Source: Clostridia bacterium (GTDB taxonomy: Bacteria > Bacillota > Clostridia > Oscillospirales > CAG-272). Taken from it: a DNA stretch of 64,000 nt. Position 1 is the first letter of the stretch. Every line of letters begins with the position of its first letter. Both the position numbers and the translations under genes were made by a program. The DNA lies in NCBI GenBank assembly GCA_017625065.1, contig JAGALS010000016.1, positions 26,707 through 90,706 on the forward strand. Reading direction: 5' to 3'. Below the pieces are notes generated by a model. That model ran no database searches. It was not told where the DNA came from and was given only the letters and a program-made list of their open reading frames with translations. Positions 1 to 40,721 of the stretch are shown here, one piece after another.

Positions 1-1119
1 TTCGTGGAGCAGGAGCTGACGGCGCGCCTTGGTGATGTTGGCAAGAAGCTGCACACCGCAAGAAGCCGTAACGACCAGGTCGCGCTTGACGTGCGGATGT
101 ATCTGCGCGAGGAGACCGACGGCATTATGGCACAGCTTCGCGAGTTACTCACGGTCGTGATCGACCGCGCCGCCGAATACGAGGGCACGATCATGCCCGG
201 CTATACCCACCTGCAAAGAGCGCAGCCCATCACCTTCGGCCATTGGCTGATGGCGTACGCTATGATGCTTTTGCGCGATCTTGACCGCTTGACCGACACA
301 AGAAAGCGCATCAACGTTTCCCCCATCGGCTGCTGCGCCCTGGCGGGCACCACCTACAACACCGACCGTCGCTTTGAAGCGGAGCGCCTTGGCTTCCCCG
401 AGATCTGCCGCAACTCGCTTGACGGCGTTTCGGACCGCGATTTTTGCCTTGAATTTATGAGCGCCTGCTCAATTCTGATGATGCACCTTTCCCGTATGTC
501 CGAGGAGATCATTCTGTATTCGAGCTGGGAGTTCGCCTTCATCGAGCTCTCCGACGCCTACACCACGGGCTCGTCGATCATGCCGCAAAAGAAGAATTCC
601 GATATGGCGGAGCTGATCCGCGGCAAAACGGGACGCGTTTACGGCGATCTTGTGGCGCTGCTCACCACGCTCAAGGGCTTGCCGCTTGCTTATAACAAGG
701 ATATGCAGGAGGACAAGGAGAGCCTGTTTGATGCCGTGGACACGGTGAAAATGTGTCTGTCGGTGCTCACGCCTATGCTCGCCACGATGAGCGTGAAGGC
801 AGAGAATATGAAAAAAGCGGCAAGCGGCGGCTTTATCAACGCCACCGACCTTGCCGACTATCTGGTGGGAAAGGGTATGCCCTTCCGCACCGCATATAAA
901 ATTTCGGGACAGCTGGTCGCTCATTGCATCAAGGAGGGCACCGTGCTGGAAAACCTGCCTCTTGAGATCTATCGCACGTATAGCGAGCTTTTTGACGAAA
1001 CGCTGTACGATGCCATTGATCTTGAGGCGTGCGTAAACCGCCGCATTTCCGAGGGTGGAACCTCACGCGAGTCGGTACGCGCACAGATCCTCTATGTAAA
1101 GGAGCGTTTGGAGCAATGA
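1..1119 (+). CDS. argH: argininosuccinate lyase (5' truncated by window edge)
   Basis: HTARSRNDQV, PGYTHLQRAQP and GSSIMPQKKN fumarase-family signature; first gene of arg cluster. Confidence 0.97.
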   Translation, partial: FVEQELTARLGDVGKKLHTARSRNDQVALDVRMYLREETDGIMAQLRELLTVVIDRAAEYEGTIMPGYTHLQRAQPITFGHWLMAYAMMLLRDLDRLTDTRKRINVSPIGCCALAGTTYNTDRRFEAERLGFPEICRNSLDGVSDRDFCLEFMSACSILMMHLSRMSEEIILYSSWEFAFIELSDAYTTGSSIMPQKKNSDMAELIRGKTGRVYGDLVALLTTLKGLPLAYNKDMQEDKESLFDAVDTVKMCLSVLTPMLATMSVKAENMKKAASGGFINATDLADYLVGKGMPFRTAYKISGQLVAHCIKEGTVLENLPLEIYRTYSELFDETLYDAIDLEACVNRRISEGGTSRESVRAQILYVKERLEQ

Positions 1120-14121: not shown

Positions 14122-14400
14122 ATAAGACCATACACCCTCCAATCGAACGTCACCTTTGCGCGGAATTCGCCTCTCTCGCTCAGAGCAGGCACCCTCACGG
14201 CACATCAGATGAGCCGCTTAATGCTGCTTGGTTCCCCACCTGACATGGTTCACGGCGTCTGATTGCGTAAGACCCACTCGTCAACACGAAAGAGCACGCT
14301 CCGGACCGCATCGCATCGGTCCTCAAGGAGGGGATCCACCCCTGCTATAGCGGATTTCAGGTGCAGGGCTCCGCTACTTCCCCGGCTGGTATGGCCTTAT
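14122..14400 (-). ncRNA. ffs: large (Alu-containing) signal recognition particle RNA
   Basis: minus strand GGGGAAGTAGCGGAGCCCTGCACCTGAAATCCGCTATAGCAGGG Alu domain, S-domain CATGTCAGG-TGG-GGAA-CCA-AGCAGCA, paired ends, canonical position upstream of dnaX. Confidence 0.93.
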
Positions 14401-20611: not shown

Positions 20612-22978
20612 ATGAGGATCCGTGTACATTCGTCACGTGAGGCAAAACGAAAGCCACTGCTACAGCAAAATTCGCGCTTTCTTGAAATGACCTGCGTGCA
20701 ATTATTATTTGCCTCGTTGGGGGCGCTTGCGGGCAGCGCGGAGCTGCTATTTCACGTGCGCCCGTTTGGCGTCGCACTTGCGGCAGCGGCGACCGCGCTT
20801 TTTCCTGCGGTGTCGCTTGGGGCGGCGATTTTTTATATCGTCACAAAGGAATACGTGACGTTGGTGGCGCTCGCGCTTGTGGGGGCGGCAAGGGGAATTT
20901 TGCACTTTTACCCCCACAACGGTGCAAGAAAAACGCGAATTTTCACAGAGCGCATCTCCTATCGCGTGCTGATCGCGGCGGTGGCGCTCTTTTCCACGGG
21001 GCTCTTTCGCATCATTCGCGGCGGCTTCCGCTTTTTCGATCTGTTCGCGCTCTTGCTCGCGGTCACGGCGGCTGCGCTTGCCACGCTGCTGTTTTCGGGA
21101 ATGTTTGAAAAAAGGGATAGGCTCTTTTTGCACAGCCGCGAGATCGGTGTCGCCGCGCTGGTCCTGACTTGCATCTTTGCAATGCGCGAGGTCAGCTTTT
21201 TCGGTGTATATCCCTCGGCGGTCGCGGCGGCGCTTGCGGCGTTTTGGTTGGTCGCGCATCGGGGCGTTTCGCTTGGAACTGTTGGCGGCGCGCTTGCGGG
21301 GCTGTGCTTTGATGTTCGTATGGCACCGGCGTTCCTTTTGTGTGGGCTTTGTTTTGGGTTGCTCGAAAAAAGCAGCCGCGGCGGCGGTATCCTGGCAGGC
21401 AGCGGTGCGGCGGCGATCTATGCCTTTGCCGTTGCGAGGACTGCGGGGATCACGTTGATCCTGCCTGCACTGCTCACTGCGGGTGCACTATTTTTAGCGG
21501 GAGACAGCGCGGGGCTTGTGGAGGGCTCATCGGGCTATCGTCTCATGCTCACGCGGCGACGAGCCGCACTGCAATCCGCCAAGGCGGGGGAGCAGCTGGA
21601 AAGCGAAACACAGGTCAGAGAGCTTTCGGGCGCCCTACTTGACCTTTCCGGCACTTTCTTTGAGCTCAGCAACCGTCTGCGCCGTCCCGGGCTGATGGAC
21701 TTGCGCCATCTGTGTGATAAGGCGTTTGATGAGGCTTGCCCGGGGTGTCGCAACCGTGATATTTGCTGGGGCACGGAGTACCACGCAACGGCAAGCACGG
21801 TGGGGGCGCTTGGTAGTCGCTTACACACGAGCGGTGTGGTTGGAAAGGAGCAGATCCCCGCGGATCTCGCCGCCAGATGCACCCGCTTGTCGACTATTTT
21901 AAAAAGCATCAACGAGGGTGCGTTGCGCCTTTCGGAGGAGGCGCTTCGAGGCGATAAGACCTCGGTGGTGGCGAGTGATTATGCCGCCGTTGGTCGCATT
22001 TTGAGCGAGACGTTAGAGGATTCTCGCGACATGTTCGTGACTGATGCCGCCGCAGGCGAGCGCATTCTGGAGCGCTTGCAGCGCCTTGGCTACGTGATGG
22101 AATCGGTCGCGGTCTGCGGCAAAAAGCATCGGCGCGTGATCCTGCGCGGCATCCGTCTGCCGGGCAGACATTTGAAGGTGAGAGAGCTGCGGCAACTTCT
22201 GGAGCAGCATTGCCGCTTTTCGCTCGGCGCGCCCGAGGTCGTCGAAGCTGACGGAGCTGCGGATATGGTGTTCCCGGAGCGGACAAAATACGGCAGCGTG
22301 ACCGTTAAGGAAACGCGCGTGAAATCGAAGAGCGAAGGGCGCTATTGCGGCGATAGTGTGATGACACTTTCCACGGACAAGGGGTATGATTACGCGTTTT
22401 TGTGTGACGGAATGGGCAGCGGCAATCAGGCGGCGCTGACCTCAGCGCTGGCTTCGACCTTTCTTGCGCGTATGCTTCGTGCGGGGAGCCGCGCGGATAC
22501 CGCGTTGCGGATGCTCAACGGCTTTCTTGCCGCCAGAGGCTCGCGCGAATCGGAATCCAGCACGACGGTGGATCTGCTTGAGATCGACCGTGTCAGCGGT
22601 GAGGCGTCGCTGTTCAAATGCGGTGCGGCGGTGACGTATTTATTGCGACGGGGGGAGATCACGCGCTTTGTCTCTCGCACGGCACCGGTTGGTATTTTGG
22701 AGTCGCTGGATGCCGAGCGGATCCGTTTTTCGGTGAACGTTGGCGATATTTTGATACAAGTGAGCGACGGCGTGACCAAAGGTGAAGAGGATTGCCCGTG
22801 GCTTTCGGAGATGCTTTCAACAAAATGGGATGGCGATGCCGAGAAATTCGCGCGCCTTGTTTTGGGCCGTGCCGCGCAGGAAGGAAACGACGATCTTTCG
22901 ATCATGGTGACCGAGATCACCCGAGCGAAGGGCTTAAACGAAGAGAATGGCGCAAGTGCAGACAGAACGTCTGCATAA
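20612..22978 (+). CDS. spoIIE: stage II sporulation protein E (membrane PP2C phosphatase)
   Basis: N-terminal multi-TM domain with PFG motif, CxxC..CW linker, PP2C motifs CGDS, CDGMGSG, SDGV, DDLS. Confidence 0.85.
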   Translation: MRIRVHSSREAKRKPLLQQNSRFLEMTCVQLLFASLGALAGSAELLFHVRPFGVALAAAATALFPAVSLGAAIFYIVTKEYVTLVALALVGAARGILHFYPHNGARKTRIFTERISYRVLIAAVALFSTGLFRIIRGGFRFFDLFALLLAVTAAALATLLFSGMFEKRDRLFLHSREIGVAALVLTCIFAMREVSFFGVYPSAVAAALAAFWLVAHRGVSLGTVGGALAGLCFDVRMAPAFLLCGLCFGLLEKSSRGGGILAGSGAAAIYAFAVARTAGITLILPALLTAGALFLAGDSAGLVEGSSGYRLMLTRRRAALQSAKAGEQLESETQVRELSGALLDLSGTFFELSNRLRRPGLMDLRHLCDKAFDEACPGCRNRDICWGTEYHATASTVGALGSRLHTSGVVGKEQIPADLAARCTRLSTILKSINEGALRLSEEALRGDKTSVVASDYAAVGRILSETLEDSRDMFVTDAAAGERILERLQRLGYVMESVAVCGKKHRRVILRGIRLPGRHLKVRELRQLLEQHCRFSLGAPEVVEADGAADMVFPERTKYGSVTVKETRVKSKSEGRYCGDSVMTLSTDKGYDYAFLCDGMGSGNQAALTSALASTFLARMLRAGSRADTALRMLNGFLAARGSRESESSTTVDLLEIDRVSGEASLFKCGAAVTYLLRRGEITRFVSRTAPVGILESLDAERIRFSVNVGDILIQVSDGVTKGEEDCPWLSEMLSTKWDGDAEKFARLVLGRAAQEGNDDLSIMVTEITRAKGLNEENGASADRTSA

Positions 22979-22979
22979 C

Positions 22980-23020
22980 AAAAAGGGCGGGAGATGCAAA
23001 ACGCATCTCCCGCCTTTTTT
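22980..23020. terminator. spoIIE intrinsic terminator (bidirectional)
   Basis: AAAAGGGCGGGAGATGC-AAAAC-GCATCTCCCGCCTTTTTT. Confidence 0.85.
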
Positions 23021-23025
23021 GCGGC

Positions 23026-23098
23026 AATAAAAAGAGGAAATGTCCCGACAGTGATCGCCCAACAAACAAGGCTGGGAGATATAACGGCGGCATCCCTC
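23026..23098 (-). ncRNA. putative small hairpin RNA (array unit 3)
   Basis: minus-strand TTGACC(23134-23129)-17bp-TATACT(23111-23106); 65-nt hairpin GAGGGATG...CATTTCCTC then TTTTTATT. Confidence 0.6.
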
Positions 23099-23142
23099 AA
23101 AAAAGAGTATAGCACAAAAATCAAAAACGGTCAACCCATAGT

Positions 23143-23301
23143 AATAAAAAATGCCGGCTTTGTCTCGCGCTCAATATTCTCGGATGTGAGCGAGAATCGA
23201 GGAAAATACGCCTACAATGCCGACAAAGAGCAGCTCTCAATATCCCACTGGCCCAAATAAGACCCGCGGGGCGTACGTCCAAAACCGTTAAAGAGAACTG
23301 T
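23143..23301 (-). ncRNA. putative ~155-nt structured small RNA (array unit 2)
   Basis: minus-strand TTGACA(23336-23331)-17bp-TATACT(23313-23308); multiple stems; ends GCCGGCATTTTTTATT; no ATG-led ORF. Confidence 0.55.
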
Positions 23302-23346
23302 GTTTAAAGTATAAAACAAAATGTCAAAAATGTCAACCCCGTAGCA

Positions 23347-23413
23347 TAAAAAGCAAGCATCCCTACTGTTCGGGTCGCCAAAAGGCGTTGCCCTCGCAGA
23401 TGGTGATGCTTGC
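23347..23413 (-). ncRNA. putative small hairpin RNA (array unit 1)
   Basis: minus-strand TTGACA(23449-23444)-17bp-TATACT(23426-23421); 61-nt hairpin GCAAGCATC...GATGCTTGC then TTTTT. Confidence 0.62.
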
Positions 23414-23504
23414 ATCCGTCAGTATAGCAGCTTTTATGGAAAATGTCAAGCCTTTATGATATGACACGAAATACAAGAAACGCGATGCATTTTTTGGGAA
23501 ATCC

Positions 23505-23534
23505 TTGACACGGAACGCACAAAAGTGGTATACT
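23505..23534 (+). promoter_or_regulatory. sigmaA promoter of mrnC operon
   Basis: TTGACA-18bp-TATACT with TG extension. Confidence 0.7.
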
Positions 23535-23586
23535 GAAGAAAACTCTTTTGACGTTCCTTGTGGGCGTTTGAGGAAAGGAAAACAAG

Positions 23587-23964
23587 ATGGATCTTCATAC
23601 AGTCGGCACTGCGGCCCTGGCGTATCTTGGTGACGCGGTGATCGAATTGATGGTAAGAGAGCGCTTGGTGGGCATGGGCTACTCCTCGTCCAAGGCGCTC
23701 AACGCCCGTGCGCTGGATTTTGTGCGCGCCTCGGCGCAAGCACAGGCAATGGAGCGACTGCTTCCGCACCTCACGGAGGAGGAAGAGGGCGCGTTCCGCC
23801 GCGGACGGAATATCGGACATACCAATACCCCAAAGCGCGCAACGGTCGCCGAATACCGCAACGCCACGGGCATGGAGGCACTGTTTGGCTACCTACACAT
23901 CAAGGGCGAGCAAGCGCGGATCAAAGAGCTATTTAAATTGGCATATCAGGAGGATGAAAAATGA
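23587..23964 (+). CDS. mrnC: Mini-ribonuclease III
   Basis: LAYLGDAV, FVRASAQA, RRGRN, YRNATGMEALFGYL; no dsRBD. Confidence 0.93.
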   Translation: MDLHTVGTAALAYLGDAVIELMVRERLVGMGYSSSKALNARALDFVRASAQAQAMERLLPHLTEEEEGAFRRGRNIGHTNTPKRATVAEYRNATGMEALFGYLHIKGEQARIKELFKLAYQEDEK

Positions 23965-24785
23965 AAGTTGGGTTTAACCTTTACAAGGATGGCAAGCACA
24001 AGGCGCTGACCATGAGCTACGATGACGGACAGGTGCATGACATCAGACTGCTTGAGATCTTCAACAAATACGGCATCAAGGGCACCTTCCATCTGAATTC
24101 CGGCAAGCTTGATGATGAGGCGGGCAAGTTCCTGACCTCGGAGCAGGTCGCCACCGTATTCGACACACACGAGGTCTCGGTGCATAGCCTGACACACCCC
24201 TATCTGGAGCGTGTGTCGGACGAGGAAGTTGTTTACGAGATCGTGGAGGATCGCAAAAATTTGGAAAAGCTTTGCGGCTATCCCGTGCGCGGAATGTCCT
24301 ATCCCTTTGGCACATACAATACGCAATTGATCGAAAAGCTGCGCGTGCTCGGTATGCAATATTCCCGTACCATCAAGCCCGCAGGCGTTTGGAGCAGCCC
24401 CGACGATTTCAAAATCCCCGATGATTTTATGCAATGGCACCCCACCTGTCATCATGCGGACGAAAAGCTGTTCGACTATTTGGCGGCGTTCAAAAGGAAC
24501 AAGCGCCCCTTGGCCCTGTTCTACGTCTGGGGACACAGCTTTGAGTTCCCGCGTGGTGACGGTTGGACGCGTATCGAGGAATTCTGCGAAAAGGCTGGCG
24601 GCGACCCCGATGTGTGGTATGCCACCAACATTGAAATTTACGACTATATTATGGCGCTTCGCGCTCTGCGCTTTTCTGCCGATCGCACGATGGTCTATAA
24701 TCCCACCGCCACCGACGTTTGGGTGGATGTAGATGGGAAAGCCGTGGTTTGCCCCGCGGGAAAGGTTACAAGGTTTACTATTTGA
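23961..24785 (+). CDS. polysaccharide deacetylase family protein (CE4)
   Basis: TMSYDDG, HEVSVHSLTHP, SYPFG, WGHS. Confidence 0.88.
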   Translation: MKVGFNLYKDGKHKALTMSYDDGQVHDIRLLEIFNKYGIKGTFHLNSGKLDDEAGKFLTSEQVATVFDTHEVSVHSLTHPYLERVSDEEVVYEIVEDRKNLEKLCGYPVRGMSYPFGTYNTQLIEKLRVLGMQYSRTIKPAGVWSSPDDFKIPDDFMQWHPTCHHADEKLFDYLAAFKRNKRPLALFYVWGHSFEFPRGDGWTRIEEFCEKAGGDPDVWYATNIEIYDYIMALRALRFSADRTMVYNPTATDVWVDVDGKAVVCPAGKVTRFTI

Positions 24786-40307: not shown

Positions 40308-40442
40308 GGTATGACTTCCTTTCTCCGGCCCTGCCGGCAATGCGTAAAAAACGCAAGAAAATAAAAAAACCGGTTGAAAACCAGCCGTAGTTGTACTATA
40401 ATAAGAACAGACGGTGCAAAGCACGCGCCGCTTAGCAACATA

Positions 40443-40608
40443 CAGATAGCTCTCCATCAATACTGACGACAGTTCCACAGCTTTGAACCGTGTGAACCAG
40501 CAAGGCATCCGCCGCAGAAAGCCCCACTTCGGCGCTCTGTGCTCTCACCCTGGCTACAAGCGGTCACGGCGACCTTGCCAGAATGAGGTCGCAGCGCGCA
40601 CCTCTATC
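40443..40608 (-). promoter_or_regulatory. lysine riboswitch
   Basis: minus strand ATAGAGGTGCGC...GCCGAA...ACTGTC...GGAGAGCTATC upstream of dapAB, followed by terminator CGGCTGG/CAACCGG-U tract. Confidence 0.85.
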
Positions 40609-40721
40609 ATTATATTATGTTTTTTTGACCTTTTGGTCACTAATATCTTAACACATAAATATGTGCTTGTCAACCGTTTTTGAAAGGTTTTTTAAAAAGA
40701 CAAGCCACTGAAAGGACAGAT

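Follow-up and report, generated by a model that had tools for sequence, protein, structure and literature searches.

Why should three promoter-hairpin-terminator units stand head to tail between a spoIIE gene and the gene for a Mini-III-like ribonuclease (mrnC)? The question is raised by a stretch of 64,000 nucleotides, here called the window, from a Clostridia bacterium of the CAG-272 lineage (assembly GCA_017625065.1, contig JAGALS010000016.1, positions 26,707 to 90,706), whose minus strand carries the array. A first-pass annotation had described the units as small structured RNA genes of undescribed function, and the positions it gave for their promoters, hairpins and U-tracts all hold. Here, we ask what these putative genes are and how they came to lie where they do. 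Their relatives lead us to favour, by a modest degree, an array of autonomous phage-derived antisense small RNA (sRNA) cassettes, or "RNA morons", which perhaps serve superinfection exclusion in the manner of STnc6030. Among the roles guessed at in the first-pass annotation, "antisense regulators or antitoxin-like" comes close to this view.

Architecture and conservation of the array

The elements of the array are as follows, with the RNAs as predicted:

23449-23421, minus strand: unit 1 promoter, TTGACA-17-TATACT, TG-extended, 11/12 consensus matches
23348-23414, minus strand: unit 1 RNA, a 61-nt rod hairpin (23413-23353) plus U-tract; family of 7 sequences
23336-23308, minus strand: unit 2 promoter, TTGACA-17-TATACT, 11/12 consensus matches
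23224-23301, minus strand: module 2a, hairpin domain at the 5' side of unit 2, with an eroded U-tract (CUCUUUG)
23143-23224, minus strand: module 2b, hairpin domain at the 3' side of unit 2, plus U-tract, with no promoter of its own here
23134-23106, minus strand: unit 3 promoter, TTGACC-17-TATACT, TG-extended, 10/12 consensus matches
23029-23099, minus strand: unit 3 RNA, a 65-nt hairpin plus U-tract; family of 6 sequences from 6 genera

All three promoters are of the near-consensus sigma-A type, and in units 1 and 3 exactly seven bases separate the -10 hexamer from the first paired G, as had been noticed at first sight. A scan of 7 kb found 8 promoter-like sites where 4.4 were expected by chance; the array promoters are three of the five sites scoring at least 10/12, and all three fall inside 330 nt of the same strand. 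A fourth promoter-like site (23505-23534, plus strand) belongs to the RNase III-domain gene. The only repeats within the interval are the promoter words. Unit 1 folds into a single rod of -33.1 kcal/mol (z -5.6; 0/200 shuffles as good), while unit 2 forms two separate hairpin domains (-56 kcal/mol, z -3.4). The fold of unit 3 is weak when taken alone (-22.4 kcal/mol, z only -1.65; 15/200 shuffles as good), and its homologues support the rod. The interval would then hold three independent transcription units with four hairpin modules, each unit being read from a strong constitutive promoter into an RNA of ~65-155 nt. The 5' and 3' ends of each RNA would pair into a rod ending in an intrinsic terminator, and such paired ends should stabilise the RNA.

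Homologues place these predictions on firmer ground (genomes are denoted by G, loci by L). Within the genus, BLAST turned up unit 1 in G045, G013 and G023 and module 2a in G023. Every copy comes with a promoter and U-tract of its own, at a genomic site that differs from copy to copy. When the search was widened to 400 genomes of the family, covering 97 genera, unit 3 was found in five other genera (G398, G298, G138, G323 and G256), module 2a in G441, and module 2b in G438 and G352, in the latter behind a TTGACA-17-TACACT promoter of its own. One further copy of unit 1 (L052) came from a pattern scan over 185,579 species genomes, and two more (L085 and L086) from a protein-guided scan of metagenomes. 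Nearly all homologues of the four modules have a promoter and U-tract of their own. In the unit 1 family, the hexamers are kept in all seven members, the -35 being identical and the -10 reading TATACT, TATTCT, TACACT or TATATT. Four of the five unit 3 homologues carry TTGAC[AT]-17-TATACT and the fifth a weaker promoter, while the module 2a homologues have TTGACT-16-TATACT (G023) and TTGACA-17-TATACT (G441) and terminate in CTCTCTTTTTT.

It was from these searches that the composition of unit 2 became apparent. The first-pass annotation had treated it as one body of ~155 nt; that span stands, and the single unit does not. Because 2a and 2b (23301-23224 and 23224-23146, respectively) have separate homologues elsewhere, unit 2 is to be read as two modules; in the window, 2a has lost most of its U-tract and 2b stands without a promoter.

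The stems of the four families have changed in a way expected of structured RNA:

Unit 1 family: 7 sequences, 21 pairs, 12 compensatory, 14 G-U, 0 A-C
Unit 3 family: 6 sequences, 22 pairs, 4 compensatory, 21 G-U, 3 A-C
Module 2a family: 3 sequences, 29 pairs, 4 compensatory, about 12 G-U, 2 A-C
Module 2b family: 3 sequences, 24 pairs, 3 compensatory, 7 G-U, 0 A-C

For unit 1, 8/20 pairs were already compensatory among the first four sequences. With seven, 95.2% of cells are paired and 12/21 pairs have changed on both sides, a result matched by none of 500 shuffles, and controls in which the alignment was slid reach at most 47.5%. The unit 3 counts (97 Watson-Crick cells, 21 G-U, 3 A-C and 11 other) come from a model-fitted alignment (A6) that is biased toward structure, MAFFT having misaligned the outer stem; the first 6 of its 9 rows were counted, with L087, L105 and L051 dropped as other families. 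For 2a and 2b, G-U and A-C cells were counted by hand from pair tables.

These counts also bear on the strand. A G-U pair on one strand is an A-C mismatch on the other, and the four families together hold ~54 G-U cells against 5 A-C cells. The ratio therefore shows that pairing has been selected in the transcript running from promoter to U-tract; selection on structure has acted on the promoter strand. Taken together, the conserved promoters and U-tracts, the compensatory stem changes and the G-U over A-C asymmetry make strong evidence, at the level of sequence, that the units are real RNA genes. The proposal of independent promoter-body-terminator units of no catalogued family is upheld. The apical loops vary across homologues in alignments viewed by eye.

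Are these RNAs already known under another name? The first-pass annotation had recognised no tRNA, riboswitch, 6S or CRISPR family, and it was right in this. At gathering thresholds, Rfam 15 gave no match on the units, so that membership in a catalogued family (riboswitch, 6S, tRNA-like, CRISPR repeat or known sRNA) falls short of the required score. In E-value mode over 22900-23650, nothing significant fell on the units, the best values landing on the spoIIE terminator. ARAGORN found 0 tRNA genes, and no CRISPR family was found at the array. Among 18 homologue loci, the only Rfam matches were a ZMP/ZTP riboswitch and Gut-1 RNA, neither of them on a cassette. Each module belongs to a conserved RNA family absent from Rfam 15. 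The matches in the window lie elsewhere: a bacterial large signal recognition particle (SRP) RNA (14128-14394, minus strand, 167 bits) and a lysine riboswitch (40439-40614, minus strand, 68 bits). The ZMP/ZTP riboswitch (L010 371-453, minus strand) lies ~1 kb from the unit 1 copy of G013.

Several familiar classes of element were considered and set aside. A mobile repeat of the MITE, REP or palindromic type was rejected, as the 435-nt block finds only itself in its own genome (other matches <=37 nt, E >=0.2). For a type I toxin-antitoxin system, no open reading frame (ORF) for a small toxic peptide lies in or beside the array; the ATG frame on the RNA strand of unit 1 differs between window and G045, and short RNA-strand frames are not conserved when read by eye. 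A type III system of the ToxI kind was rejected on account of the lack of repeats other than promoter words, the three separate promoters and a downstream gene that is the convergent spoIIE. Mimicry of an anticodon loop was likewise dropped, since the loops vary and hold no conserved motif by eye.

Cassettes opposite polyvalent-protein genes

Where the homologues lie is more informative than what surrounds the array in the window. In G045, a continuous ORF of 1596 aa carries three cassettes in antisense, the unit 1 homologue and two others, and none on the sense strand; between them lie 1-2.4 kb of domain-coding DNA. Similarly, unit 1 is antisense within a 2426-aa ORF in L052, module 2a within ORFs of 1031 aa (G441) and 650 aa (G023), and unit 3 within a G398 ORF no shorter than 545 aa. 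These ORFs contain PBECR3, MuF_C and LPD3 domains and match phrog_22978, and we regard them as polyvalent proteins of the phage or conjugative-element type. The concept of such a protein family was reportedly put forward by Iyer et al. in 2017, and MuF toxins are known from the literature.

The position of the cassettes within these genes is regular. They sit directly after domains, that is, at inter-domain junctions: after the PBECR3 nuclease domain in G023, G441 and the third G045 cassette, and in other cases after LPD3 or MuF_C. An unbiased sample of junctions was drawn by protein similarity alone (L085, L086 and junctions in G415, G291, G414, G087 and G343). All seven (L085, L086, L121, L124, L125, L129 and L118) have an antisense cTTGACA-17-TATACT promoter, a body with a closing 5'/3' stem and a T-run, with the -10 read as TACACT in L085 and TATATT in L086 and most promoters TG-extended. 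Four of these (L121, L124, L125 and L129) share only 26-28% amino-acid identity with G045. The cassette bodies differ among polyvalent subfamilies. A second sample took nine further polyvalent loci with other upstream domains, matched by the downstream coil region only. In five, a clear cassette lies no more than 400 nt upstream (three of these with 12/12 hexamer bases), one is cut by a contig end, and three have none or a weak one.

Is it the protein or the RNA that is being conserved at the junctions? In a codon alignment of four ORFs, identity at third codon positions averages 0.41 and peaks at 0.6-0.85 precisely across the cassette, a stretch with amino-acid identity of only 0.33-0.7; in the best-conserved protein blocks (0.9 amino-acid identity), it is only 0.37-0.46. 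Third positions within the hexamers are invariant, while synonymous sites are otherwise saturated. Cassettes also occur without any ORF in the window, G013, G438 and G298. A peptide, SIADFLxxVK, is kept at 26-28% protein identity, and it is the promoter read backwards in translation rather than the reverse, because of the cassette at all seven junctions, the other junctions, the third-position peak and the ORF-free copies. The cassettes are thus under nucleotide-level constraint inside coding genes. An RNA with its own promoter and terminator opposite a mobile-element coding gene, of the kind of OOP and STnc6030, is what the homologues present and the window copies do not.

One further observation concerns G023 (L009 ~553-565), where the A-run that ends the unit 1 homologue is one base longer than in G045 and splits the polyvalent ORF. 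Possible causes are a frameshift in the homopolymer, a phase switch or an error of assembly.

On this evidence, the cassettes of the window are not host inventions; they are relatives of cassettes that lie antisense in mobile-element polyvalent genes. At the level of sequence, such a unit, running from promoter to terminator, would fit the definition of a moron. In a mobile element, the RNAs might be expressed in the lysogen or carrier state and pair with the mRNA of the polyvalent gene, limiting its expression or that of a superinfecting relative, by analogy with STnc6030.

Stand-alone arrays and the history of the locus

The surroundings of the array in the window are listed below:

20612-22978, plus strand: SpoIIE gene, left neighbour, convergent with the array and downstream of unit 3
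22979-23021, both strands: bidirectional terminator hairpin, native (shared by G016), ending spoIIE on the plus strand
23022-23455, minus strand: lineage-specific block of ~430 nt holding the whole array; G016 has a 17-nt spacer instead
23587-23964, plus strand: Mini-III-like (RNase III-domain) gene, mrnC, right neighbour

A polysaccharide deacetylase gene and a cyclophilin gene are further neighbours. The terminator at 22979-23021 would halt minus-strand read-through out of the array. The plus strand is not free of coding potential: the stretch, which had been called non-coding, is so for the RNA strand, whereas an 88-codon frame (22994-23260, plus strand) begins inside the spoIIE terminator and runs across unit 3 and module 2b. 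This frame reads like a remnant of a polyvalent-protein linker peptide, e.g. VIAQQTRLGDITAASL.

The Mini-III gene is present in 40/40 genus genomes; of 29 relatives' loci checked, spoIIE adjoins it only in G016, the closest relative (89% identity), and G041. Window and G016 can be aligned on both flanks, left through the spoIIE terminator and right through ATGATAT and the mrnC promoter; between these lie ~430 nt in the window and 17 nt in G016. The block is missing from this interval in both G016 and G041 and is found at this site in 1/40 genus genomes, while promoters and hairpins are conserved in homologues at other sites. Either the array was inserted in this lineage or it was lost from G016. 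Since the closest relative lacks the block in the same interval, the spoIIE and mrnC neighbours are uninformative on the function of the array, and a functional link to Mini-III or spoIIE was rejected; the modules would have arrived as a ~430-nt block whose position is incidental.

Arrays of cassettes are not peculiar to the window, as the following loci demonstrate:

L115 (G438): 5 modules in ~900 nt
L104 (G298): 4 modules, a unit 3 homologue among them
L106 (G352): 3 modules, close behind an ORF that contains an ADP-ribosyltransferase domain
L108 (G323): 2 modules, including a unit 3 homologue
L051 3430-3700 and 13040-13160, both minus strand (contig C51 of the window's own genome, G000): a tandem pair and one single, amid housekeeping genes
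L099 (G046): several promoter-plus-hairpin modules, two of them copies of the C51 hairpin

The first member of the C51 pair has two adjacent homologues in G046 (L099) with a common GGUUACCUACGGGGCC / CGCCGUAAUGGGUGGGCG core, and the C51 cassettes have no Rfam match. Apart from the ADP-ribosyltransferase ORF of G352, the flanks of these arrays are housekeeping genes, and the neighbours are unrelated from one array to another. Four or more other genera have cassette-only arrays, each time in an unrelated chromosomal context.

Repeats accompany some of these arrays. Directly upstream of the C51 pair (L051 3710-3900, minus strand; C51 52710-52899) lies a dispersed repeat of four ATATCATCA words with small GC hairpins between them. 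It is multi-copy, as 24/40 genus genomes match a query containing it, often at contig ends, and it resembles the Gut-1 RNA motif in build, the repeated word being different. The two-cassette array of G323 is flanked by a full Gut-1 RNA (RF01706, 60 bits) and an inverted partial copy (L108 390-463, minus strand, and 1-59, plus strand). The G323 flanks and the C51 repeat hint that Gut-1-like repeats and cassette arrays may travel together. Promoters similar to those of the cassettes are also used by tRNA operons in the genus, and long rod-like RNAs behind the same promoter style, candidates for 6S-like RNAs, were seen at C82 18496 (plus strand) of G000 and at L026 ~1501 (minus strand).

What, then, of selection on the window copy itself? 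Unit 1 and the G045 cassette still have 20 nt in a row in common. With a divergence of ~19% from G045, unit 1 retains 12/12 bases of the hexamers, the 17-nt spacer and a stem with compensated pairs, and the coding frame is broken. Across the array, two breaks in unit 1 and one in unit 3 interrupt the polyvalent reading frame, with hexamers, spacing, stems and U-tracts intact. The chromosomal array may be what remained after decay of the element, kept as orphan immunity RNAs or on its way out.

Competing explanations and known systems

A number of observations weigh against the reading of the array as phage-derived antisense sRNA cassettes. No gene overlaps the array on the plus strand, and a search of the window's own genome with one 1036-aa query found no polyvalent gene, a result that does not imply absence in an assembly that is 87.7% complete; a cis-antisense role would therefore be impossible in this genome. 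The assignment to mobile elements is indirect, resting on Pfam and PHROG families and one phage-like neighbour: IMG/VR gave no match to two patterns and one protein profile, and collections of cultured phages and plasmids none by blastn or tblastn. The unit 1 family is strong in only 4/40 genus genomes; over these genomes its covariance model (R1) exceeds 30 bits only for its own four training sequences, the other matches looking like ordinary terminators. In the loops of units 1 and 3, the bases that are conserved fall on conserved polyvalent peptides (VALADG, PTVR, LSVIA and NITE), so such loops may be coding by-products. As for expression, the contigs of RNA run X1 (word share 0.07) cover 23711-24292 only and not 22970-23700. 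Finally, a near-identical strain in sequencing run X2 also carries the block, with 8 differences in ~570 nt of the interval (~1.4%, against ~0.4% in flanking coding DNA). Read by eye, 4/8 fall where they disrupt a predicted pair (three in module 2b, one in 2a), and one base is missing at 23431, leaving promoter 1 with a spacer of 16 nt instead of 17. At a depth of only 3.5-4 some of these differences may be errors; they look like what relaxed constraint in the host might produce.

This last point makes a serious rival of the view that the block is a decaying relic of a polyvalent gene or prophage, whose promoters may still fire and whose RNAs have no selected function in the host. The pair-breaking differences, at ~3-4 times the density in flanking genes, would agree with it, as would the absence of the block in the closest relative and the peptide remnants still read on the plus strand (GVALADGDA, IPTVR and VIAQQTRLGDITAASL), where the 88-codon frame is kept. 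A decay series can even be laid out, from the 2426-aa ORF of L052 through the 1596-aa ORF amid non-phage genes in G045 and the split ORF of G023 to the single or triple cassettes of G013 and the window. However, simple decay does not readily explain why only the cassettes survive, tiled head to tail with the 1-2.4 kb of intervening domain-coding DNA of G045 gone, why arrays of cassettes alone are met again in four or more other genera, in unrelated contexts, or why unit 1 has kept hexamers, spacing and compensated stem while its frame was lost. We therefore take the relic to be possible and yet rather unlikely. A bolder extension of the antisense reading joins two claims: polyvalent genes of gut Clostridia phages would be systematically overprinted at domain junctions with antisense sRNA genes, and bacteria would keep cassette-only arrays as an island of heritable RNA immunity, in which every cassette would silence a single junction in an incoming relative's injected-protein gene. 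Such an array would serve as an innate antisense counterpart of a CRISPR array or orphan-immunity cluster. As a pair, these claims are doubtful.

The other explanations are far less probable. Instead of pairing with mRNA, a hairpin might act as a decoy that binds and neutralises the toxic domain of an injected polyvalent protein, such as a PBECR RNase, with the array as the RNA counterpart of an orphan-immunity island. That three cassettes directly follow PBECR3 nuclease domains, that the G352 array lies just after the ADP-ribosyltransferase ORF, and that arrays mix cassette families each with its own constitutive promoter would all suit a decoy; cassettes after LPD3 and MuF_C, which are not known toxins, and variable apical loops without a conserved substrate-like motif do not, and we give it little credence. 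Ordinary host trans-acting sRNAs, with host mRNA targets and only a secondary likeness to mobile elements, would be in keeping with promoters that resemble those of the genus's stable RNA genes (tRNA operons, 6S-like RNA) and with the further cassettes amid housekeeping genes on C51. Such sRNAs sit badly with a block found at this site in 1/40 genus genomes, with homologues mostly inside polyvalent genes, and with complementarity in the own genome at chance level (best 16 nt, E 0.75), which makes them hard to credit as well. The last alternative turns to the sense strand, where the signal would be the linker peptide SIADFLxxVK or a frameshift signal made of an A-run followed by a hairpin, the antisense promoter being a by-product. 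The peptide is indeed kept at low protein identity, and the A-run stands directly before the hairpin on the sense strand, where a 1-nt difference splits the G023 ORF. Against these stand the 54 G-U and 5 A-C cells, pointing to pairing kept on the other strand, the invariant third positions of the hexamers amid saturated synonymous sites, and the copies without an ORF in the window, G013, G438 and G298. A programmed frameshift signal and the linker peptide were both rejected on the first and last of these grounds, and the sense-strand explanation as a whole is the least credible of all.

What would follow if the antisense cassettes are transcribed as predicted? We know of almost no described sRNAs from gut Oscillospiraceae-type bacteria, and at least four conserved structured RNA families would be added for these uncultured organisms. 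Giant polyvalent/MuF genes would be seen to carry a hidden gene layer on the opposite strand that persists at 26% protein identity, clearly an instance of dual coding, and this would give a handle on the control of injected multi-domain proteins. Orphan arrays of phage-derived antisense RNAs could, if the reading is true, act as defence. For annotation, a perfect TTGACA-17-TATACT promoter with rod and U-tract opposite a long ORF is better taken as a feature than as noise. Word searches of the open-access literature, which are no proof of absence, found no prior description of antisense RNAs in polyvalent/MuF genes.

Several known systems resemble the cassettes in part. The tandem sRNA genes LhrC1-4 of Listeria also lie head to tail, each with a promoter and terminator; however, they are paralogues under one regulator, whereas the units of the array are unrelated save for promoter style and single-copy in the genome. 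ToxI likewise forms an array of short structured RNAs, and an RNase-type toxic domain is linked to the cassette homologues. Unlike the array, which has separate promoters, no repeats and no toxin gene, ToxI consists of identical ~36-nt repeats in one transcript that is cut by the toxin encoded downstream. Rickettsia palindromic elements are hairpin DNA lying in frame within protein genes and adding a peptide segment, but they are multi-copy selfish repeats without promoters, while the cassettes are single-copy per genome and have both promoter and terminator.

Phages also have short antisense RNAs, of which P1 c4 and P4 CI are examples. Lambda OOP and P22 sas, named among such RNAs in PMC7067206, share with the cassettes a short, structured, constitutive make-up, their own promoter and intrinsic terminator, overlap with a phage coding gene and action by base pairing, which for the cassettes is the proposed mode. 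OOP and sas belong to other families and hosts and number one RNA per phage at a regulatory switch; cassettes occur several per structural or effector gene at domain junctions, and also stand alone in host DNA. The closest working precedent is STnc6030 of the Salmonella prophage BTP1, which runs opposite a late gene for a DNA-injection protein and opposite a tailspike gene. This RNA starts from a transcription start site of its own, reaches high levels in lysogens and, when expressed alone in another host, excludes phage BTP1 (PMC7067206). Being antisense to an injection-type gene with its own start, it serves as the working model for cassettes in polyvalent genes, which are of the injected head-protein type. 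There is no sequence or structural relation between the two: STnc6030 is a single ~786-nt RNA of an enterobacterial phage, of which no chromosomal arrays are known to be described, and the cassettes are 65-80-nt rods known here from their sequence. The phage moron (PMC3594210) is an independent promoter-to-terminator transcription unit in a phage genome that spreads horizontally. Described morons encode proteins and are intergenic, whereas the cassettes would be RNA-only and are overprinted opposite a coding gene without breaking its frame. Phage antisense sRNAs and morons are thus a known kind of element; what is new is their systematic overprinting at the domain junctions of giant genes, the conservation of the cassettes at 26% protein identity, and the cassette-only tandem arrays in host chromosomes.

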